Below, one piece after another: positions 1-12,538 of a stretch of DNA of 64,000 bases. Position numbers and translations under genes: made by a program. Below the pieces are notes generated by a model. The model was not told the DNA's origin, did no database searches, and saw only the letters and a list, made by a program, of their open reading frames with translations. The number at the start of each line of letters is the position of its first letter. The stretch's first letter is position 1. Source of the DNA: Vicinamibacterales bacterium. Lineage in GTDB: Bacteria > Acidobacteriota > Vicinamibacteria > Vicinamibacterales > UBA8438. The stretch is from assembly GCA_965202695.1 (NCBI GenBank), contig OZ241843.1, forward strand, positions 4,352,701 through 4,416,700, in the 5' to 3' direction.

Positions 1-1
1 T

Positions 2-2251
2 GAGCGCGGCCAGGGTGTCGCACTTCACGCGCTGGTCCGCCTCTTGCAGTAACTGGGCGTATTGTTTCCGTTCCGGCGCGCGTTCGGTGGCCGACACGAA
101 CACGAACGGGTCCAGGTGGACGAGGTGATTTCCGCCGAGGCGCGACGATTGCTCCAGGCGTTCGATCAGCGCCTGCTCCGACGATGACTCCGTGCACACG
201 CAAGGCGGCGGATGGAACAGACGGAACGCGGGCTCGTCGAACACTCGCGTCAACGTATCCGTGACGCCGCCGTCGCAGTCCATGAGCTCGAGGGACTTCC
301 GTGGAACGTCACGAAGCGCGAAAGCGTGGAGCACGGCCGAAGCCGCGTAGGGACGCTCGCCGGCTTTCATGCCGTCCACCGATCCGAGTCCGTCCGGCGC
401 GCACGCGAACGCCCGCTCCTGCGCGGCGCACAGCTTCGACCGCCGCATGGCCGGGTCGTTTGCCGCCGCAGCGTATTCCCTCGCCGCCGGGATCGCGTAG
501 ACGCCCTTGCCGGCATGCGTCTCCAGGACGTGCAGTTGCTTGCGCCACCGTTCGTGCCTGCGGAGCTCGTCGAGCACCGCCAGATAAACGGAGTGCTTGA
601 TGACGTCGCCGCCGTTGCCGGCGTTCTCGTTCTGCTCCGACGCACTCTGGAGGTCCCGCCGGTGCAATCCCATCGTCGTCGTATCCGGTTGCCGCCGTGC
701 TTCCTCTTCGATTCGTTGCCGAACGAAGTCGTCAAGGTATCCCAGGTTCGTGAGATGCCACAGCGTCGACTCGAAGCCGATGCGCAGCCGGTTCGCCACC
801 TGCCCCACCGCATCCGCGGTTTCCAGCGCCTCGGTCAGGGCCGCGACGGCACGTTGCACGAGCGGATTGGGCATCAGGACCATCGCCGCGAAGGCGTTGG
901 CCCGCCGCTCGACGTCGCGCGGGGCCCAGGGGCCGCTGGCCATCGCAAGCCGCGCGCCGGCATCCCTGTCGAACAGCAAGTGGCACAGCTCGTGAGCCAG
1001 GGTGAAGCGGCGGCCGAAGGAATGCTCGTTGACGCTGTTGCCTGAATTGACGACTATCCCCGGCCGATGGCGCTCGCCGTCGAAGGCGACTCCCCTGACG
1101 GTTTCGTCGGACAGGCCGCGATCGACGACTTCGACGCCCAGGGTCTCCAGAATGCGGTCCACGTCCACGAATGCGTTTCCGACGAACGTCCCGTCGAAGT
1201 GATCGTGAAAATGCTCGGCCAGTTCGTACCCCTGACGCCACGAGGGATCCCCGGAGTCCTCGATCGGCGCCGCGCCGCGAATCGATTCGAACGGTCGCGA
1301 AGCGCTTCCGGGGTCGTGGAGGGCAACCATGACGTCGGCAAGCGTCAGCACGTCCGCCTTCCCGACGTTCGGCGCAAGCGAACCGAACATCAGCGCCGCC
1401 TGACACGAACCGGTCACCACGAGCGGCGACGCCGAGGCTTCCAGCATGGCGCGGCGCGGGAGCTCGGCGCACGTCGACAGGTAGCGTTTCGCCCGCTGCC
1501 ATCCGGCGTGAACCGTACGTTCATTCGTTCCCAGTCCGGCCAGCCACATGAGCCGCCGTTCCCGGTGGCGTTCCGCCGCGCGCAGGGCCGCGACGCGCTT
1601 GCGCAGCTTCCGGAAGCGCTCCGATGCCGGCGCGTGTGACAGCAGGTAGTCGCTCGCGCCGGCGAGCGCCTCGTGCAGCGGATCGGCGACCGCCGCCGGC
1701 GGCAGCCGGCTGAAGCCGGAAGCGGACTCCGCGAAGTCGACGTGCTCCGGCATGCCGGCGGTACGCGTCGGCCCCCAGGAGATTTCCACGAAGTCCCGCA
1801 GGCGTCTCACCACGACGTCCGGGAACAACCCGCCGTCGCTCGCCGCGCGCAGCGCATGGCGCATCCACCACGTCTGCCAGTCGTCCTCCCAGCGGGCTTG
1901 CCGCTCGCTGCTCTCGTCCATCGCCGGCGGCGGGAACCGGGTCGCCCGCAGCGACTCCCAGGCGGTGTCGCCGAGGTTCCGCGCCGGCAGGCGTTCCTCG
2001 TGAAGCAGGGGATTCCAGTGCGCCACGAACCACTCGATCAGCGGGAGCAGGTACCAGTGCACGGATTCGATGCGCTCGCCCGCTTCCCGATGCGCGCACA
2101 GGTTCCGGCCTTCGACCCAGAGCTGGAAACTGCCCCAGGAGAGAGAGACGTCGGGATCGGCGGCCTGTCCGCCGTCGGGGTCCTGGCCGAACGCCAGTGT
2201 CAGCGCGAAGGCGCCGGTGTCCCCGGCGAGCCGCTCCCAGCGGGTACTCAT
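2..2251 (-). CDS. Large multidomain protein, C-terminus beyond the left window edge (at least 750 aa). It has an unknown N-terminal region, an ImmA/IrrE-type (COG2856, peptidase M78-like) HEXXH zinc-peptidase core, and an RlmJ/YhiR-like (former DUF519) methyltransferase-fold domain.
   Basis: Absent from the ORF track because it has no stop inside the window. Hand translation of the minus strand from ATG 2251-2249 stays open down to position 2. Motifs seen: SFGRRFTLAHELCH (HEXXH codons at 980-994), NAGNGGDVIKH (593-625), LETHAGKGVY (THAGKG codons 503-520) and HLDPFVF (DPF codons 104-112). These are in the same order and similar spacing as the E. coli RlmJ motifs HAGNHADVLKH / LDTHAGAGRY / IDPPYE. 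Plus-strand ORFs 212..1045, 1067..1639 and 1673..2962 are antisense shadows. Confidence 0.8.
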   Translation of the reverse strand, partial: MSTRWERLAGDTGAFALTLAFGQDPDGGQAADPDVSLSWGSFQLWVEGRNLCAHREAGERIESVHWYLLPLIEWFVAHWNPLLHEERLPARNLGDTAWESLRATRFPPPAMDESSERQARWEDDWQTWWMRHALRAASDGGLFPDVVVRRLRDFVEISWGPTRTAGMPEHVDFAESASGFSRLPPAAVADPLHEALAGASDYLLSHAPASERFRKLRKRVAALRAAERHRERRLMWLAGLGTNERTVHAGWQRAKRYLSTCAELPRRAMLEASASPLVVTGSCQAALMFGSLAPNVGKADVLTLADVMVALHDPGSASRPFESIRGAAPIEDSGDPSWRQGYELAEHFHDHFDGTFVGNAFVDVDRILETLGVEVVDRGLSDETVRGVAFDGERHRPGIVVNSGNSVNEHSFGRRFTLAHELCHLLFDRDAGARLAMASGPWAPRDVERRANAFAAMVLMPNPLVQRAVAALTEALETADAVGQVANRLRIGFESTLWHLTNLGYLDDFVRQRIEEEARRQPDTTTMGLHRRDLQSASEQNENAGNGGDVIKHSVYLAVLDELRRHERWRKQLHVLETHAGKGVYAIPAAREYAAAANDPAMRRSKLCAAQERAFACAPDGLGSVDGMKAGERPYAASAVLHAFALRDVPRKSLELMDCDGGVTDTLTRVFDEPAFRLFHPPPCVCTESSSEQALIERLEQSSRLGGNHLVHLDPFVFVSATERAPERKQYAQLLQEADQRVKCDTLAAL

Positions 2252-2263
2252 AAAGTCACCAAC

Positions 2264-2599
2264 TCAGTCCCAATGTTTCCGAACGTCGCTCCGGCGGACA
2301 CGGCCTTCTTCGATCCATCTGCGCCGGAGGGATTGCGGAACCTGGACCCAGCCGACAGGGTACCCGTGCCAGACGCCCGGGCCGTGCCGCCGCGCGCAGT
2401 ACGCACGGCTCTCGTGAACGGCGTACCGTGCGCCATCGACCGGCACACTGTCGTCGAGCAGGCATTGAGCGGTGCGCCGGTCCACGTCTTCCGGGCAGAT
2501 CGCCCCCCGGCGTCCCCGCTGCCACGGCTCCTTGTGCTTGACGCTTCCCTCGTAGCGCATGGGTGCGGTCGGCTGGTCCCGACCGGAACGGCGGCTCAA
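2264..2599 (-). CDS. Small basic hypothetical protein (111 aa, or 98 aa from the internal Met at 2560) with three Cys and a WHGYPVGW motif. Family not recognised.
   Basis: The ORF translation has non-shadow composition (MRYEGSVKHKEPWQRGRRGAICPEDVD...AYCARRHGPGVWHGYPVGWVQVP). Its stop at 2261-2263 lies 9 nt before the ATG of the downstream large ORF on the same strand. Confidence 0.65.
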   Translation of the reverse strand: MSRRSGRDQPTAPMRYEGSVKHKEPWQRGRRGAICPEDVDRRTAQCLLDDSVPVDGARYAVHESRAYCARRHGPGVWHGYPVGWVQVPQSLRRRWIEEGRVRRSDVRKHWD

Positions 2600-2826
2600 T
2601 CAGGTCGGCGTCAGCGCCGGATGCGCTCCGACACGTCGAACGACGCCGTTCCTCCGGGCCCGCGCCCTCGACGGCCGCTCCAGCGGCGTCAGGGTGTGGA
2701 ACGTGAAGACGCTGGATACGTCCCGCTATCCGTCCGGCGTGCGCATCGGCGTCGGAACTTCCGCATTCCAGACAGCTTACGTCAGGCGCACGCAGCCACG
2801 GCGAGGAAGCCGGGGGAACGCGCCGG

Positions 2827-4350
2827 TCAAGGAAGCCCACGGGCCGGGGGCGCCTGCCCGCCGCCCCGTATCGGCTGCCCGGGGAAGACGCCCTCGACGA
2901 GCTCGCCGTCCCGGACCACGAAGGTCCCGCCGGCGAGGACGTGGCGGATGCCCTCCGAATAGCGGTCGGGCGCCTCGTAAGTGGCCCGGTCGATGACCGT
3001 GTCGGGGTCGAACAGCGTGAGGTCGGCGTCGGCGCCGACCTGGACGCGGCCCTTGGCGGCCATCCGCGGAGCCACGGCCTCGAGCCGTCGGGCGGGCAGC
3101 AGGGTCATCTTGCGCAGGGCGTCCATCAGCGGCAGGGCGCCCCGCTCGCGCACGTAGCGGCCGAGGATGCGGGCGAACGTGCCGGCGCCGCGGGGATGGG
3201 AGCGGCCCGCGCTGAAGGGGATGCCGTCGCTGGCCGCGATGACGTCGGGCTGGGCGACGATCCACTCGTTGGTCGCCTCGGACCGGCCGTGGGTGATGAC
3301 CCAGCCGCCCTGCTCGCGACGGCGGCGGAAGGTCTCTTCGGTCAGCCGCTCGCCGCTGTCGACCCATTGCAGGCGGGCGTAGTCTTCCGGCGGACGCCCC
3401 TCCCAGCCGTCGAACAGGGCCGACTCGATGCGGCTGGCGCTGGCCGTGTAGGGGTAGGCCTCGGTGGTCACGTCCACGCCGCGCGACCGCGCCCCGCGGA
3501 TCAGCTCGAGGGCGGCCGGGGCGGATTCGCCGGCGCTGCTGTTCAGGTGCACGACGTGCAGGGCGGCGCCGGTGGCGGCGGCGTTGGCGACGGCCTCCTG
3601 GAAGGGGGCGATCGCCTCGCGGCTGGCGAACGCGCGGGTCGACCGCAGGTGGATGAACACCGGGACGCGCCGGCCGGCGGCGGCCGCGAAGAGCCGCCAT
3701 ATCTCCTCGTGACCGGCCCCCGGGGTATAGGTGACGCCGAACCCGAACCCGAGGGCGCCCTGGTCGAGCCCCGCCTCCATCACGCGGGCGATGCGGCGCA
3801 TCTCTTCCTCGGAGGCCGCCTCGTAGAGATAGGCGCCGCCGCGCCCCAGCGTGAACGTCCCCTCGTCGTTCCGGCGGGTCTGCACGGCGCCGAACGCCTC
3901 GCGGCGCGCCCCCTGGTGGCTGACCGACGCCCCGTAGTGGATCAGGGACCGCCCCTCGCGCTCCGCGTACCAGGCGTCGACGGGATGGACCCCGATCTCC
4001 AGCTCCAGCGCCGTCGTCACCCCGTCGCGGGCCTGGTACCGCTGGCTGACGGGGTCCTGGCCGTGGGCGTGGAGGTCCACGAACCCCGGCGCGACGACGA
4101 GGCCGGCGGCGTCGAGCACCTCCCGCGCCTCGGGCCGGCCGCCGCCGACCGCGACGACGACCCCGCCGCGCACGGCCACGTCGGCGACCGCGTCGAAACC
4201 GGTCTCGGGGTCCATGACCCGCCCCCCGGTGACGAGCAGGTCCACCGGTCCGACCCCGGCGCCGCCGCCGCACGCGACGGCCAGGCACCACGCGGCGGCC
4301 GGCGCGGCCCACCCTCCGACGCGCCGCCGGGACGCGCATCCGGTCGTCAT
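2827..4350 (-). CDS. N-acyl-D-amino-acid deacylase (D-aminoacylase) family amidohydrolase, probable lipoprotein.
   Basis: Motifs [21 protein letters not shown] and a C-terminal [15 protein letters not shown] are typical of the D-aminoacylase / amidohydrolase 3 family. Start re-picked at MTTGCASRR (ATG 4350). A lipobox-like LAVAC follows. Confidence 0.8.
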
Positions 4351-4471
4351 GCGGTTCCCTCCCTCCACGACGTCGCCGGCGTCGACCGGGCTCTCCGCCG
4401 GAACGCGCATCCGGTCATGACGCGGTCCCCTTCCCCCCGGCCTGCCGCCGCCGCGCCCCGCCGCGCGCCGC

Positions 4472-5914
4472 TCACCACAACCCGAGGACCTTCCACCAGA
4501 CCAGGCCGACCGGGATCCAGATCGCGAGGTTGGCGACCGAGGCCTGGAAGCCGACCCGCCACCAGTCCGCGAGGCTGACGTAGCCCTCGACGAAGATGAT
4601 CGGCGACGTGGTCGTCCCGTAGTGGGTCAGCCCGGCGGTCAGGTTGTTGATGAACACGAGGCTGTAGACCACGACCGGGGCCGGCGCCCCGATACCCACC
4701 AGCAGGGCCAGGAAGGGAGGGTACAGGGCGAGGGCGTGGACGGTGGTGCTCGCGAAGAAGTAATGCGCGTAGAAATAGATGACGAGGGTCGCGACGAAGA
4801 CCGCGGCCCACGGCGCCCCGGTGAACCACGAGCCGAACCACTCGGCGAAGACGGTCGCGACCCCGGTGTCGTTCAGCACCCCCCCCATCATCAGGAGGCC
4901 GCCGTACCACACGAAGATGTCCCACGCCGACCGCTCGCCGAGGGCGCTGTCCCAGGTCAGGGCCTGCGTCGTGAACAGCACCGCGATGCCGAGCAGGGCG
5001 ACCAGCGTCGGCGAGAGCCAGCTCACGTAGGACGACGCGACCCAGAAGCCGATCAGCCCGACGAACACCACTCCCACCACCGCCTCGCGGCCCCGGATGG
5101 GACCGAGCGCGGCCAACTGCCCGTCGGCGAACTCGGAGGCGGCCGGCGTCCGCTTCAGCGACGGCGGGACCGCCCGGTACACCAGCCACGGCACCACGAC
5201 GCTGGACACGAGCCCCGGCAGGAGGCCGGCCGTGAACCAGCTCGCCCAGGTGACGCGCACCCCCGCGTACTCCGCGGCCAGTTCGCCCAGCAGCAGGTTG
5301 GCGGCGCTGCTGTAGTAGAACATGGCCGACGAGATGACGCTCCCCTGGTACATGCAGGTCATCAGGAAGGTCGCAAGGACCGCCGACGACGGGCCCGGAT
5401 GCGATTTGTAAAGGCCGGCGACGCCGCGCGCGATGGGGAAGACGATGCTCGCCGACCGCGCGGTGATCGAGGGCACCCCGGTGGCGAGGGTGAGGTCGGT
5501 CAGGTGCATGGCGTAGCCGAGCCCGAGCGACGTGCGGCCGATGGCCCGGATGAACCAGAGGGCGATGCGGCGGGCCAGCCCCGAGTCGCGCAACGCGCGC
5601 GACATGAGCATCGCCGTCAGCACCATCCACACGGACGGGGCCGAGTAGCCGCTCAGCGCCCGATCCATCGGCAGACCGCCGAGCACGATCATGGCGGTGA
5701 TGCCGACGAGCACGATCTGCGACCCCGGCATCGGCTGCAGCATGAGCCCCGCGATGGTCGTGAAGAAGACGGCGACCCGGCGCCAGTCCTGGGCGGCGAC
5801 CCCTTCGGGCGGGGGCAGCAGGTGGGCGATGGCGAGATAGATGCCGGCCAGCGCGAGGAGCCGGCCGGGCCGGACGCGGGACGAGGAGGATGCGCCGGCG
5901 GGTTCGTCAGCCAT
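4472..5914 (-). CDS. DASS/SLC13-family anion (di/tricarboxylate) permease.
   Basis: Polytopic membrane protein. The [14 protein letters not shown]..., [14 protein letters not shown] and [12 protein letters not shown] segments resemble 2-oxoglutarate/malate translocator-type DASS transporters. Confidence 0.75.
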
Positions 5915-5944
5915 GACCGGGGCGCCGCTCAGGCGTCTGCCGGG

Positions 5945-7150
5945 CTACGACACCCGCTCCAGCACGGCCGCGAGCCCCTGACCGACGCCGATGCAGAGGG
6001 TCACGAGGGCATACCGCCCCCGGCAGCGCCCGAGTTGCCGGGCCGCGGTCAGCGCCAGCCGTGCGCCCGACGCGCCCAGGGGGTGGCCGACGGCGATCGC
6101 GCCGCCGTTCGGATTGACGCGGCTGTCGTCCTGGTCGATCTCCAGCAGCTTCAGGCACCCCAGCACCTGGGCCGCGAACGCCTCGTTGATCTCGATGACG
6201 TCCAGGTCCGCGACCGACAGCCCCGCCCGCGCCAGGGCCTTCCGGCTCGCGGGCACCGGCCCCAGGCCCATGACCCGCGGCTCGACCCCGGCCGCCGCGG
6301 CCGAAACCACCCGCGCCAGCGGCGCCGCGCCCGCCCGCTCGCCGGCGGCGCGGCTTCCGACGAGCAGGGCGGCGGCGCCGTCGTTGATGCCCGAGGCGTT
6401 GCCGGCGGTCACCACCCCGCCTTCGAAGAGCGGCGGCAACGCGGCCAGCTTGTCCAGCGAGGTGCCGGGCCGGGGATGCTCGTCGTCGGCGACCGTCGTC
6501 CGCTCGCCGCGCTTCCGTCCCGGCACCGTCACCGGATCGAGCTCGTCCCGGAAGAAGCACGCGGCCTTGGCGCGGGCGAACCGCTGCTGCGACGCGAGGG
6601 CGAAGCGGTCGGCGTCGGCGCGGGTGACGTCCAGGTCGGCGGCGACGTTGTCGGCGGTCTCGGGCATCGCGTGGTCGCCGTACCGCGCGGTGGTCCGGGG
6701 GTTGGAGAACCGCGACCCCAGGGTGCTGTCGTGCACCGCGCACTGCCGCCCGAACGCCCGCTCCGACTTCGCCATCACGAACGGGGCGCGGCTCATGCTC
6801 TCGACCCCGCCGGCGACGAACAGCTCGCCCTGGCCGCACGCGACGGCCCGCGCGGCGTCCACCACCGCCGCGAGCCCGCTCGCGCACAGCCGGTTGACGG
6901 TGATCCCGGCGACCTCCACCGGCAGCCCGGCCAGCAGCCCCGCCCGCCGCGCCACGTTGCGGCAGTCCTCGCCGGCCTGGTTGGTGCAGCCGACGACGAC
7001 GTCCTCCACGTCTTCGGCCCGGAACGGGCTGCACGCCATCAGGGCCGCGATCGGGCCGGCCAGCAGGTCGTCCGGGCGCACCGGGGCGAGGGCCCCGGCG
7101 TGGCGGCCGAACGGGGTGCGGATTCCGTCGTAGATGAAGGCGTCGGTCAT
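5945..7150 (-). CDS. Acetyl-CoA C-acyltransferase / 3-oxoadipyl-CoA thiolase (thiolase I family).
   Basis: Has IYDGIRTPFGR, the active-site segment VNRLCASGL, NEAFAAQ, a C-terminal GGAIAVGHPLGASG and CIGVGQG. Start re-picked at MTDAFIYDG (ATG 7150). Confidence 0.9.
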   Translation of the reverse strand: MTDAFIYDGIRTPFGRHAGALAPVRPDDLLAGPIAALMACSPFRAEDVEDVVVGCTNQAGEDCRNVARRAGLLAGLPVEVAGITVNRLCASGLAAVVDAARAVACGQGELFVAGGVESMSRAPFVMAKSERAFGRQCAVHDSTLGSRFSNPRTTARYGDHAMPETADNVAADLDVTRADADRFALASQQRFARAKAACFFRDELDPVTVPGRKRGERTTVADDEHPRPGTSLDKLAALPPLFEGGVVTAGNASGINDGAAALLVGSRAAGERAGAAPLARVVSAAAAGVEPRVMGLGPVPASRKALARAGLSVADLDVIEINEAFAAQVLGCLKLLEIDQDDSRVNPNGGAIAVGHPLGASGARLALTAARQLGRCRGRYALVTLCIGVGQGLAAVLERVS

Positions 7151-7262
7151 GGTCGCGGGCCCGGTTCCATTCCGAAAGGCCCTCATTATACGTGGGCGGC
7201 CCGGCGGCGGGGCGGCGCCGGGCCCACGGTCCCGCCGCCTGCCGTCCCCGCGTCCGCCGCGC

Positions 7263-9491
7263 TCACAGGCCGTCGATTATCGCGTTGAGGGTCGGGCTGG
7301 GCCGCATGGCCCGCTCGACCCGGGCGTCGTCGGGACGATAGTAGCCGCCGACGTCCACCGGCCGCCCCTGCGCGGCCAGCAGCTCGCCGGTTATGGCCGC
7401 CTCGTTCTCGGCCAGCCGGGCCGCCGCGTCCGCGAAGCGGGCCTGCAGCGCGCGGTCCTCGTCCTGCGCCGCGAGGGCCTGCGCCCAGTAGAGCGCGAGA
7501 TGGAAGGTGCTGCCCCGGTTGTCGATCTCGCCCGCCTTCCGCGACGGATAGCGGGCGTTCTCGAGGTAGGCCTCGATGGCCCGGTCCAGCGTCTTCGCCA
7601 GCAGCGCCGCCCGGGCGTTGCCGGTCCGGGCCGCCGCCAGCTCGAGCGACGGCACGAGCGCGCAGTACTCGCCCAGCGAGTCCCAGCGCAGGTGCCCTTC
7701 CTCCAGCATCTGCTCGACGTGCCTGGGGGCGGAACCGCCGGCCCCGGTCTCGAAGAGCCCGCCCCCGGCGAGCAGGGGGACGATCGACAGCATGCGGGCG
7801 CTCGTGCCCAGCTCGAGGATGGGGAAGAGATCCGTGAGGTAGTCCCGCAGGACGTTGCCGGTCACCGCGATGGTGTCCTCGCCGCGCCGCACGCGGGCCA
7901 GCGTGAAGCGCATGGCGTCGACCGGCTTCAGGATGCGGACGTCCAGCCCGGAGGTGTCGTGCCCGGGCAGGCAGGCGCGCACCCTGGCGATGATCTCCGC
8001 GTCGTGCGCGCGCGCCTCGTCCAGCCAGAACACCGCCGGCGCGCCCGACGCGCGCGCCCGGCTCACCGCGAGCCGCACCCAGTCGCGGATCGGCTCGTCG
8101 CGGGTCCGGCACATGCGGAAGATGTCGCCGGTGCTCACCGGCTGCTCGAGCAGGACGCCGCCGCCGGCCGCGACGACGCGGATCGTCCCCGGGCCGGGCC
8201 CCGTGAACGTCTTGTCGTGCGAGCCGTACTCCTCCGCCCGGCGCGCCATCAGCCCGACGTTGGACACGTTGCCCATCGTGGCCGGATCGAACTGTCCGTG
8301 CCGCTGGCAGTCCTCGACGATCGCCTGGTACATGGTGGCGTAGGAACGGTCGGGCACCATCGCCACCGTGTCCTGGAGTTCGCCCGCCGCGTTCCACATG
8401 CGGCCGCCGTCGCGCACGACGTTGGGCATCGACGCGTCGATGATGACGTCGTTCGGCACGTGCAGGTTGGTGACGCCCTTGCGCGAGTCGACCATTGCGA
8501 GGGGCGGCCGCATCGCGTACACCGCTTCGAGGTCGGCCTCGATGGCCGCGCGCTGCGCCGCCGGCAGCGCCTCGATCTTCTCCAGCACCCCGGCGAGGCC
8601 GTGGTCGACGTTGGCGCCGGCCGCGCGCAGGGTGTCGGCGTGCTTCCGCAGGGCCGGCTCGTAGTACACCGACACGCAGTGGCCGAACATGATGGGGTCG
8701 GAGACCTTCATCATCGTCGCCTTGAGGTGGAGCGACAGCAGGACCCCGTCGGCGCGGGCCTCGTCGATGGTCCGTCTGAAGAAGGCGCGCAGCGCCGCCG
8801 CGCCCATGACCGCCGCGTCGACGACGTCGCCGGCCTCGATCGGCGTCTTCTCCTTGAGGACGGTGACCGCCCCGCCGGCGTCGACGAACTCGATGCGCGC
8901 GTCGCACGGCCGATCGACGGTGACGGAGCGCTCGCTGCCGAAGAAGTCGTTCTCCTGCATGTGGGCGACCCGGGTCTTCGACCCCGAGGCCGGCCAGGGC
9001 TTCATCATCCGGTGCGGATGCTTCTGCGCGAACCGCTTCACCGCGGCGGCGGGCCGGCGGTCGGAGTTCCCCTCGCGCAGCACCGGGTTCACCGCCGACC
9101 CCAGCACCGCCGCGTAGCGGGCGCGTACCGCCTCTTCGACCTCCCCCGCCGGTTCCTCCGGGTAGTCGGGGACGTCGAAGCCCTGGCCCTGCAGCTCGGC
9201 GACGGCCGCCTTCAACTGCGGAACGGTGGCGCTGATGTTGGGCAGCTTCACGATGTTGGCGTCCGGCGTCCGGGCCAGCGCGCCCAGGGCCGCGAGGTGG
9301 TCGGGCACCCGCTGGTCGCCGCGCAGGCGGTCGGGGAACGCGGCGAGAATGCGCCCCGCGAGGGAGATGTCGCGGGTCTCCAGTTCGACCCCGGTCCCCC
9401 GCGTGAACGCCCGCACGATCGGCAGCAGGGCCCCGGTGGCCAGCGCCGGAGCTTCGTCGATCTTCGTCCAGATGATGGTGGCAGATGACAT
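7263..9491 (-). CDS. icd: Monomeric NADP-dependent isocitrate dehydrogenase (about 740-aa type).
   Basis: Opens with [26 protein letters not shown] and has the length (742 aa) of monomeric IDH. Start re-picked (ATG 9491). Confidence 0.9.
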
Positions 9492-9785
9492 GGTGTCCCC
9501 GAGTACGGCGCAGAGCGGCCCGCGCCGGAGGCCGCGCGGGCGTACCGACGGGGCGGTCACCCCGGCGGGAGCGGATCCCCCGATCGTACCCGATCCGGGC
9601 GGCCGGCACACGCCGGGCGCGCCCCGGGAGTGCGCGTCGAAAAAGCGAGACGCCGCCGGGGGCCTCCGGCGCGGCTGGTTCTCGCGGCCTCGGTGCTCGT
9701 TCCGAGGACCTGGAAGCCGGGAACGACACCGTAATCGACGACCGCGACGGCGCCGACGAGCACTCGTCTCACCCGCCCGGGCCGA

Positions 9786-11338: not shown

Positions 11339-12538
11339 ATGACGCGATATAATGCCCTGCCTGCGATGCCGCCGTTGCACGGGCTGCGTGTCGTCGACCT
11401 GACCCGGGTGCTGGCCGGGCCCTATTGCGCCATGATGCTGGGCGACATGGGGGCCGACGTCGTCAAGGTCGAGGAGCCCGCGCACGGGGACGACACCCGG
11501 GCGTGGGCGCCGTTCGCCGGCGGGGTGAGCACGTTCTTCCTGGGGCTGAACCGCAGCAAGCGCAGCGTCGCCCTCGATCTCAAGACCCCGGCCGGGGCCG
11601 ACGCATTGCGGGCCCTGCTCGCCGACGCCGACGTCCTGATCGAGAACTTCCGGCCGGGCAGCCTGAAGAAGCTGGGGTTCGACTACGCGTCGGTCCGCGG
11701 CGCCTTCCCCCAGCTCGTCTACTGCTCCATCACCGGCTACGGCCAGCAGGGCCCCCGGCGCGCCCTCCCCGGCTACGACGCGGTCATCCAGGGCGAGTCG
11801 GGGGTCATGCACGTCACCGGCGCCCGCGACGGCCCCCCGACCCGCATCGGCGTCGCGATGACCGACTTCCTCGCCGGGCTCTACGCGATGAACGGCATCC
11901 TGCTCGCGTTGCGCGACCGCGACGAGACGGGGCTGGGGCAGCACGTCGACATCGCCCTCCTCGACTCGATGACCTCGACGCTGGCCCTTCCCGCCAACGT
12001 CCTCTTCGCCACCGGCGAGGAACTGGGCCGCGAAGGCAACGACCACCACGCCCTGACGCCGTACGAGGCGCTGGAGGTCAGCGACGGGCTGGTCATGATC
12101 GCGGTCGGCAACCAGCGGCTCTGGCGCCAGTTCTGCCGGGCCGTCGACGCGCCGGCGCTCGAGACGGACCCGCGCTTCGCGACCAACACCGAACGCATGC
12201 GGCATCGCGGCGCGCTCAAGGCCCGCCTCGGCGCCCTGCTCGGGGCCTGGACCCGCGACGCCCTGATCGAGCGCCTGCGGGCGCACGCGGTCCCCTGCGG
12301 ACACGTGCGCTCGCTCGCCGAGGCCCTGGCCGACCCGCAGCTCGCGGCGCGCGGCATGGTGGTCGAACTGGAGCATCCGCGACTCGGCCCGATCCGCGCG
12401 CTGGGGAATCCCGTCAAGCTGTCGCGCACGCCGGCCGTCGTCGACCGGCCGCCGCCCGCGCTCGGCGAGCACACCGAGGAAATCCTGGCGGCGCTGCGGA
12501 CGGAAACGGCCGCGGCCGCCGCCGACGCCGGGGAGTGA
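11339..12538 (+). CDS. Family III CoA-transferase (CaiB/BaiF/Frc family).
   Basis: Has LHGLRVVDLTRVLAGPYCAMMLGDMGADVVKVE and ENFRPG, characteristic of family III CoA-transferases. Confidence 0.9.
   Translation: MTRYNALPAMPPLHGLRVVDLTRVLAGPYCAMMLGDMGADVVKVEEPAHGDDTRAWAPFAGGVSTFFLGLNRSKRSVALDLKTPAGADALRALLADADVLIENFRPGSLKKLGFDYASVRGAFPQLVYCSITGYGQQGPRRALPGYDAVIQGESGVMHVTGARDGPPTRIGVAMTDFLAGLYAMNGILLALRDRDETGLGQHVDIALLDSMTSTLALPANVLFATGEELGREGNDHHALTPYEALEVSDGLVMIAVGNQRLWRQFCRAVDAPALETDPRFATNTERMRHRGALKARLGALLGAWTRDALIERLRAHAVPCGHVRSLAEALADPQLAARGMVVELEHPRLGPIRALGNPVKLSRTPAVVDRPPPALGEHTEEILAALRTETAAAAADAGE

Follow-up and report, generated by a model that had tools for sequence, protein, structure and literature searches.

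A candidate RNase toxin and M78 peptidase cassette in a Vicinamibacterales bacterium, with an RlmJ-like gene joined to it by a 62-bp deletion

We analyzed a locus at the left edge of a 64,000-nucleotide stretch (hereafter, the window) of contig OZ241843.1 of a Vicinamibacterales bacterium (assembly GCA_965202695.1, positions 4,352,701 to 4,416,700). Its minus strand carries a small gene of 98 codons and, behind it, a large open reading frame (ORF) in which a Peptidase_M78 (ImmA/IrrE) domain is followed by a sequence resembling the methyltransferase RlmJ. In our preferred reading, to which we assign a probability of about 0.65, the locus is a small mobile two-gene toxin-antitoxin (TA) or defense-type cassette, consisting of a toxin resembling ribonucleases (RNases) of the Barnase/EndoU/Colicin/RelE (BECR) superfamily and an M78 antitoxin or sensor, plus a passenger RlmJ-like gene that became fused by accident. 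An initial annotation of this DNA had built its candidate new module, protease-gated and targeting nucleic acids, around the ImmA::RlmJ fusion. The fusion turned out to be the product of a 62-bp deletion carried by the window and one relative only, and the likelier toxic component is the small BECR RNase-like protein rather than the methyltransferase-like domain. The broader proposal of a TA or defense-type locus was supported.

The small gene and the M78 gene form a conserved pair

A search of 5.8 billion proteins with the large ORF returned 1441 relatives. When 185,579 species were scanned, each represented by a single genome, relatives of it were encoded at 217 loci. Neighborhoods were compared at 81 loci, namely, the best 80 of the 217 plus L001, a close relative of the window; at each of them the small gene, by tblastn, and the RlmJ-like gene were sought. 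A small-gene match adjoined the M78 gene in 76 of the 81 loci. It lay directly upstream on the same strand in 75, mostly at a gap of 7 to 15 nucleotides (nt), and L008 gave a partial match only, on the opposite strand. The M78 partner in the paired loci is about 520 amino acids (aa) long. The RlmJ-like gene was found in two loci, L001 and L002 (a Vicinamibacterales metagenome-assembled genome [MAG] chromosome, OZ241898.1), and was absent from the other 79. Conservation as neighbors, on which the initial annotation had made its module depend, was thus strong for the small gene and the M78 gene, but the RlmJ-like gene did not share in it.

The small upstream ORF is itself real. Its homologues agree with a 98-aa form that begins with MRYEG at ATG 2560, and the stop of this form lies 12 nt from the M78 gene rather than 9 nt as first annotated; on sequence grounds, the two genes are tightly coupled. 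Gene callers missed the conserved 98-aa gene in L001 (9686-9988), L086 (6695-6985), and L088 (6695-6988), and the family is under-annotated in public data.

The hosts belong to the Acidobacteriota, Alpha- and Gammaproteobacteria, Binatia, Spirochaetia, Rhodothermales, Myxococcota, Planctomycetota, Chloroflexota, Cyanobacteria, and Actinomycetota, the last represented by Streptomyces, Frankia, Sphaerisporangium, and Pseudonocardia. At L039 (6001-7065) and L041 (6001-7065), a pair made up of the sponge symbiont Aphanocapsa feldmannii and a Pseudomonadales MAG, the M78 orthologues carry in-frame stops. The small gene is also undetectable at L039, and the module looks decayed at both loci.

The small protein is a candidate RNase toxin

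The 48 database relatives of the small protein, from which lengths and conservation were taken, are all about 98 aa long and have no Pfam domain. Residues K8, H9, W13, G19, C22, H65, G66, Y67, P68, G70, and P75 are invariant in the family, and R17, R18, and R45 are nearly so. The three cysteines emphasized in the initial annotation are present in the window protein; as a family feature they were rejected because C22 alone is conserved.

The window protein matched PADLOC models of the Menshen protein NsnC along the final ~80 positions of those models (E = 4e-5), and the C-terminal NsnC hidden Markov model (HMM; PDLC03898) matched 37 of the 40 family members scanned with these models (best E = 2.3e-13). 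NsnC's C-terminal domain has been classed as PB-BECR1, an RNase domain of the BECR superfamily that carries an H-R-H triad, and has been proposed as the Menshen effector (PMC12065111). The AlphaFold2 (AF2) model of the small protein (predicted local distance difference test [pLDDT] score, 84.9) contains a helix at residues 28 to 36, followed by strands at residues 39 to 41, 44 to 49, 52 to 60, and 63 to 69. The sole confident Foldseek matches of this model were the ~75-residue chains of 5t87 (probability, 1.0; E = 4e-3), which are the CdiA-CT toxin of Cupriavidus taiwanensis (PMC9111745); ParE-type toxins came next in the list, below significance. Pfam and sequence searches found no helix-turn-helix (HTH) or XRE domain in either the small protein or the N-terminal domain of the large one, in agreement with the earlier remark that the partner is no obvious HTH protein. 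Its sequence and model suggest to us that the small protein is a candidate toxin, a BECR RNase-like domain standing alone, whose activity we infer.

The large protein joins an N-terminal domain of no known family to an M78 peptidase

As first annotated, an open frame on the minus strand begins at ATG 2251 and reaches the window edge; it runs without a stop to base 2, which gives at least 750 codons. The start, MSTRWERLAGDT, agrees with the starts of homologues. The sole Pfam domain in the ORF is Peptidase_M78 (PF06114) at residues 369 to 496, with 46.8 bits against a cutoff of 22 (E = 3e-12), which bears out the ImmA/IrrE-type HEXXH core proposed earlier. PADLOC models of CapP (1.6e-15) and RmrA (1.4e-9) matched the same stretch, and Foldseek aligned the M78 part with CapP (7t5t), IrrE (3dte), and PprI (8slm) at E ~2e-4 and a probability of 1.0. 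The HEXXH residues (H420, E421, and H424) and E448, the third zinc ligand, are invariant in the 59 homologues used to assess catalytic residues. Judged by sequence and model, the domain looks like an active zinc peptidase.

The first ~355 residues are Trp-rich, with invariant columns across phyla (Table 1). They had been described as unrecognized sequence, and indeed no match to them was found in Pfam, in PDB sequences or profiles, or by Foldseek in the PDB or BFVD; a weak winged-HTH match (E = 0.12) was rejected as noise. We consider this domain a candidate toxin-binding or sensor part.

A 62-bp deletion created the fusion

The closest relatives of the large ORF (86 to 93% identity) are 521 to 523 aa long and end in EEARRQP(A/G/V), at window residue 522. 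Database relatives P0001 to P0006 are M78 proteins of the same length with the same end point and are therefore unfused. In L001, whose protein is 93% identical, the M78 gene ends with TGA, and 68 nt further on a separate 314-aa gene (MGLHQRDLQSASEQNENAGNGGDVIKH...) begins behind a GGGAGG ribosome-binding site. Two further close relatives, L091 and L092, were also compared. L091 is unfused, with a 97-nt spacer. The separate RlmJ-like gene of L001 and L091 measures 314 to 327 aa. In L092, which lacks an RlmJ-like gene, the M78 gene is followed by a DUF222/HNH gene instead.

DNA alignment with L001 showed that exactly 62 bp of the spacer are missing from the window. With the missing segment went the TGA stop, most of the GGGAGG ribosome-binding site, and a hairpin (CCGCAC-N3-GTGCGG) between them, and because 62 equals 2 modulo 3, its loss brought the downstream gene in frame. 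The junction reads RRQP-DTTT-MGLH, in which P522 is the last ancestral M78 codon and DTTT is the former 5' leader of the next gene. In an AF2 model of residues 1 to 536, pLDDT fell below 50 for residues 523 to 536, consistent with a floppy linker made from that leader.

The identical deletion occurs in L002, whose ORF is complete at 840 aa; ~5% of L002 positions differ from the window. The fusion was thus inherited, and an assembly artifact as the source of the fused ORF was rejected, since the same junction occurs in both genomes. Apart from the stop-interrupted copies of L039 and L041, the other M78 orthologues examined are 507 to 553 aa long, and none has an extra domain. The fusion is recent and lineage specific, since no genome but the window and L002 showed the deletion. 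A striking "giant fusion" can therefore be a recent accident in which a 62-bp deletion joins two neighbors, and domain fusions should be checked against close relatives before functional coupling is inferred.

The spacer hairpin is kept in the unfused relatives, as CCGCAC-N3-GTGCGG in L001 (spacer at 11573-11640) and as CCGCAC-GG-GTGCGG, with a 2-nt loop, in L091 (6570-6666). It is GC-rich and short, and no T-run follows it.

The RlmJ-like part is a remote and altered relative of RlmJ

RlmJ is the 23S rRNA m6A2030 methyltransferase (PF04378). The RlmJ-like part in the window is cut by the window edge, with ~90 residues absent, and its full length is visible in the 840-aa ORF of L002 and the 314-aa gene of L001. 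The RlmJ signatures reported in the initial annotation occur in the stated order: AGNGGDVIKH at residues 544 to 553, THAGKGVY at 578 to 585 after the 24 aa given there, and LDPFVF at 713 to 718 after 127 aa, where ~135 had been given.

Pfam RsmJ/RlmJ gave no match even at E <= 10 for the window part, the full-length homologues, or 26 family members, and NCBIfam gave none. phmmer and hmmsearch against the PDB yielded marginal RlmJ matches (E = 0.003 to 0.05) over the first ~50 residues only. A word-indexed search collected 33 proteins of the RlmJ-like family, and an exhaustive profile search of 1.84 billion representatives collected 146 at E <= 1e-3. The tail of the latter search consisted of genuine RlmJ: 12 of 56 proteins scanned matched PF04378 (best, 2e-59). 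Alignment of the family with RlmJ proteins by hhalign gave a probability of 98.5% and E = 2.8e-15 over the N-terminal 121 columns. By these profile comparisons, the homology of the C-terminal part to RlmJ is real but remote. Both folds that had been proposed for the large ORF were therefore recovered, M78 by Pfam and Foldseek and the RlmJ-like one by hhalign, the latter with the noncanonical motif IV noted at the outset.

The RlmJ-like family aligns with the N-terminal half of RlmJ and keeps the D/K/H of motif X (DVIKH), the His of motif I (THAG), the cofactor-binding Ser (YxxS), the acidic residue of motif II after strand 2, the Asp-Pro of motif IV, and a Trp at the W195 position. The catalytic Lys (K18) and Asp (D164) of RlmJ are present in the window as K552 and D714. 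At the Y4 and H6 positions, both essential in RlmJ (PMC3814359), the family has instead Ser and an invariant Gln. Motif IV, placed by order and spacing since hhalign does not reach that half, reads not DPPY but an invariant D-P-F-x-F, DPF[A/V/P]F (DPFVF in the window). The family also differs from RlmJ in falling below the Pfam threshold, in being ~30 residues longer, and in being rare. It has an RlmJ-like fold, and the retained motifs make binding of S-adenosylmethionine (SAM) probable; by the sequence criteria tested, it is not an RlmJ.

Near-full-length family members are mostly ~300 to 345 aa long (typically ~313) and stand alone, and none is as long as the 840-aa fusion. Four copies unlinked to the M78 module were examined. 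One (L082) lies near Ku and LigD; one (L084/L085, 1-16939) lies between SNF2-helicase, PLD, and N6-methyltransferase (N6_Mtase/Eco57I) genes, with DUF6361 also nearby; one (L089) lies near HicA and a restriction-endonuclease-like gene; and one (L090) lies near IS66 and GmrSD (GmrSD_N). Three of the four are among mobile-element, restriction, or defense genes rather than in a conserved housekeeping position, and no neighbor is common to the four loci. The variant RlmJ-like genes may be an uncharacterized methyltransferase-like component of defense islands, and a family with an altered active site that tends toward restriction and mobile-element genes is a small lead in its own right.

The genes move as a cassette

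A ~3.2-kb block comprising the three genes is 94 to 96% identical at the nucleotide level among the window (1-2601), L001 (9667-12853), and L002 (5673-8789) and 88.7% identical in L091 (4671-7608). It extends from 20 to 45 nt upstream of the small gene to ~270 nt beyond the RlmJ-like gene. Outside the block the flanks are unrelated, and the thiolase gene is just 69% identical. High identity within the block and unrelated flanks point to the recent horizontal transfer of a cassette. The flanks differ at every locus whose flanks were examined and consist of ordinary metabolic or housekeeping genes; the defense-island setting that the initial annotation had raised as a question was seen at none of them.

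No tRNA or Rfam element was detected at the cassette boundary, and no integrase or terminal repeats were found. Scans for promoters, terminators, and inverted repeats upstream of the small gene gave nothing usable. Plasmid and phage collections contained no full-length homologue, M78-domain matches only being found, on plasmids.

Two minor features of the block and its edge were recorded. Just upstream of the cassette, window segment 2614-2750 (~140 to 150 nt) matches L002 4028-4181 at 82%; the L002 copy has the same orientation to the module and lies 1.5 kb further upstream, with an iron-sulfur (FeS) assembly gene between. Rfam and tRNA scans gave no match for the segment, which occurs nowhere else in the window. 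Downstream of the RlmJ-like gene, a 74-aa gene is called inside the shared block of L001 (12619-12843, minus strand). The peptide translated from L002 8556-8800 (minus strand), possibly in another frame, is quite unlike it, and the DNA alignment has small indels here.

Comparison with known systems

Proteins with an ImmA domain are a validated antitoxin hub, exemplified by RmrA of RosmerTA, that pairs with many unrelated toxins, and the toxin gene comes first in 58% of ImmA-antitoxin pairs (PMC10440598). The present locus resembles RosmerTA and the "D25 ImmA" hub of NetFlax in being a two-gene cassette that, here as a candidate pair, joins a variable small toxin to an M78-domain antitoxin, in having the toxin-first order common there, and in a patchy distribution consistent with horizontal transfer. 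It differs in several respects. RmrA has ~360 to 400 aa and usually a small N-terminal HTH, whereas the protein here has a 355-aa domain of no known family and no detectable HTH. RmrA HMMs align to the peptidase part only (profile positions ~145 to 275 of ~380), and no PADLOC model of RmrT matches the small protein. By analogy, the architecture fits the antitoxin logic of RmrA, although the protein falls outside the RmrA family.

Along its entire length, the small protein is homologous to the C-terminal ~80 residues of Menshen NsnC; it shares the helix and four-strand core and has conserved His and Arg residues that are candidates for the H-R-H triad. Unlike in NsnC, the domain stands alone and is not fused to an inactive-PIN domain, and the partner is an M78 protease, with no NsnA (ParB-DUF262) or NsnB (ABC ATPase) alongside. 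ImmA/ImmR, IrrE(PprI)/DdrO, and CapP/CapH share the M78 fold and active site and a small protein encoded immediately adjacent; however, the neighbor here is BECR RNase-like rather than an XRE/HTH repressor, and the protease has a large extra N-terminal domain. Altogether, the locus is a credible undescribed variant of the M78-antitoxin (Rosmer-like) TA or defense modules, with a PB-BECR1-type candidate toxin and a novel N-terminal domain.

Proposed mechanism and alternatives

The role of candidate antitoxin or sensor is assigned to the M78 protein by its likeness to RmrA in Rosmer systems. In the model that we favor, the large protein would hold the RNase inactive, and its N-terminal domain is the part most plausibly responsible. 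Phage infection, stress, or another trigger would then engage the M78 peptidase, which would cleave itself or a neutralizing segment or would be inactivated, and the toxin would be released. The freed RNase would then block translation, as in abortive infection or postsegregational killing. The RlmJ-like moiety would most simply be a passenger and its fusion neutral or nearly so. If the proposed function is right, M78 antitoxins extend beyond the HTH-protease design of Rosmer, and an M78 protein with a large N-terminal domain of no known family is paired with a free-standing copy of the Menshen effector RNase domain. This would be a compact two-gene system, directly testable, in many environmental phyla, including Streptomyces and Frankia.

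Several points weigh against this model. For the small protein, the Foldseek E values are modest (4e-3), the N-terminal KH motif lies in low-confidence coil (pLDDT, 60 to 74), and RmrT models do not match. The M78 protein is without the HTH domain typical of RmrA, ImmA-partner, and XRE systems, and the pair sits among housekeeping genes, not defense islands, at every locus with examined flanks. We infer toxicity, neutralization, and protease substrates alike for the module members. The ratio of nonsynonymous to synonymous substitution rates (dN/dS) among the three closest copies is 0.4 to 1.4, from small counts, which fits relaxed constraint or diversifying selection alike. Against a pure passenger role, the fused frame is open in two diverged genomes, and the three-gene block travels together in four (the window, L001, L002, and L091); given this joint travel, the RlmJ-like gene may be functionally tied to the module here.

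It is unlikely, although the analogy with ImmA/ImmR, IrrE/DdrO, and CapP/CapH would favor it, that the module is a stress or regulatory switch in which the small protein is a nontoxic nucleic-acid-binding regulator, cleaved by M78 on a signal, and the module controls other genes. The characterized M78 switches all cleave a small partner encoded alongside, as is generally known and as described in PMC10440598 and PMC12828697; the housekeeping setting and the very basic character of the small protein are further points in its favor. The small protein, however, lacks an HTH, with no XRE domain found by Pfam, and is homologous to an RNase effector domain, with two invariant His residues kept. Moreover, the patchy distribution across phyla and the varying insertion sites are typical of selfish TA or defense cassettes.

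We regard as doubtful the idea that the cassette is decaying, with the deletion as a step of pseudogenization that has left the fused gene, or at least its RlmJ-like part, without function in the window organism. The 750 codons of the window and the 840 of L002, in a 70%-GC genome, contain no stops or frameshifts, the fused frame is kept open in two diverged genomes, and the window copy retains all invariant family residues. Decay would account for the dN/dS of the RlmJ-like part (1.40 for the window against L001 and 0.74 against L002), although the substitution counts are small, and would agree with the loss of the ribosome-binding site of the RlmJ-like gene and with the pseudogenized M78 copies at L039 and L041.

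A more ambitious combination strikes us as improbable. It would make the small gene and the ~520-aa M78 gene an undescribed TA or defense family of at least 217 species-level genomes, in which a new 355-aa sensor controls the M78 peptidase that unleashes a stand-alone PB-BECR1 RNase. In addition, the Vicinamibacterales would have recruited an RlmJ-like enzyme with a remodeled active site as a third component, fused to the module in two of the genomes and possibly methylating the RNA target of the RNase for host protection, in a restriction-modification logic at the RNA level.

Finally, that the ImmA/IrrE::RlmJ-like fusion is itself the functional unit, a protease-gated nucleic-acid-modifying effector or toxin with the small protein as partner or regulator, is very improbable. 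In its favor, two independent genomes carry an intact fused ORF, four genomes carry the three genes as a block that moves together, and the conserved DPF-x-F and SAM-site residues suggest that RlmJ-like proteins probably work. However, the RlmJ-like gene is missing from 79 of 81 module loci, and the close relative L092 lacks it as well; it is a separate gene in L001 and L091 and solo in unrelated contexts elsewhere. No other M78 orthologue has an extra C-terminal domain, the junction is leftover 5' leader read as DTTT, and the small protein, being BECR-like, makes a far more convincing toxin.

Features and neighbors in the window

The coordinates of the features discussed above are listed in Table 1.

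Table 1. Features of the cassette in window coordinates
Feature	Coordinates	Strand	Landmarks or basis
Small protein, 98 aa, candidate RNase toxin (BECR fold, PB-BECR1-like)	2267..2560	minus	stop codon 2264-2266; WHGYPVGW 2348-2371
Spacer, 12 nt, small-gene stop to M78 ATG	2252..2263	minus	sequence
N-terminal domain of M78 protein, ~355 aa	1187..2251	minus	29 invariant columns across phyla
Peptidase_M78 (ImmA/IrrE) domain	764..1147	minus	HELCH 980-994; E448 within ERRANAFAAM 881-910
Fusion junction	674..688	minus	P522 codon 686-688; DTTT 674-685
RlmJ-like part, residues 527 to 750	2..673	minus	AGNGGDVIKH 593-622; THAGKGVY 497-520; LDPFVF 98-115

On the readable side of the cassette, the neighbors on the minus strand (2827-9611) are metabolic genes, with no defense island on that side. 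Pfam assigned an amidohydrolase (2827-4410) and a Na/sulfate-type symporter (4472-5914); they are followed by a thiolase-like gene (5945-7186) and a monomeric isocitrate dehydrogenase-like gene (7263-9611), both recognized by eye.

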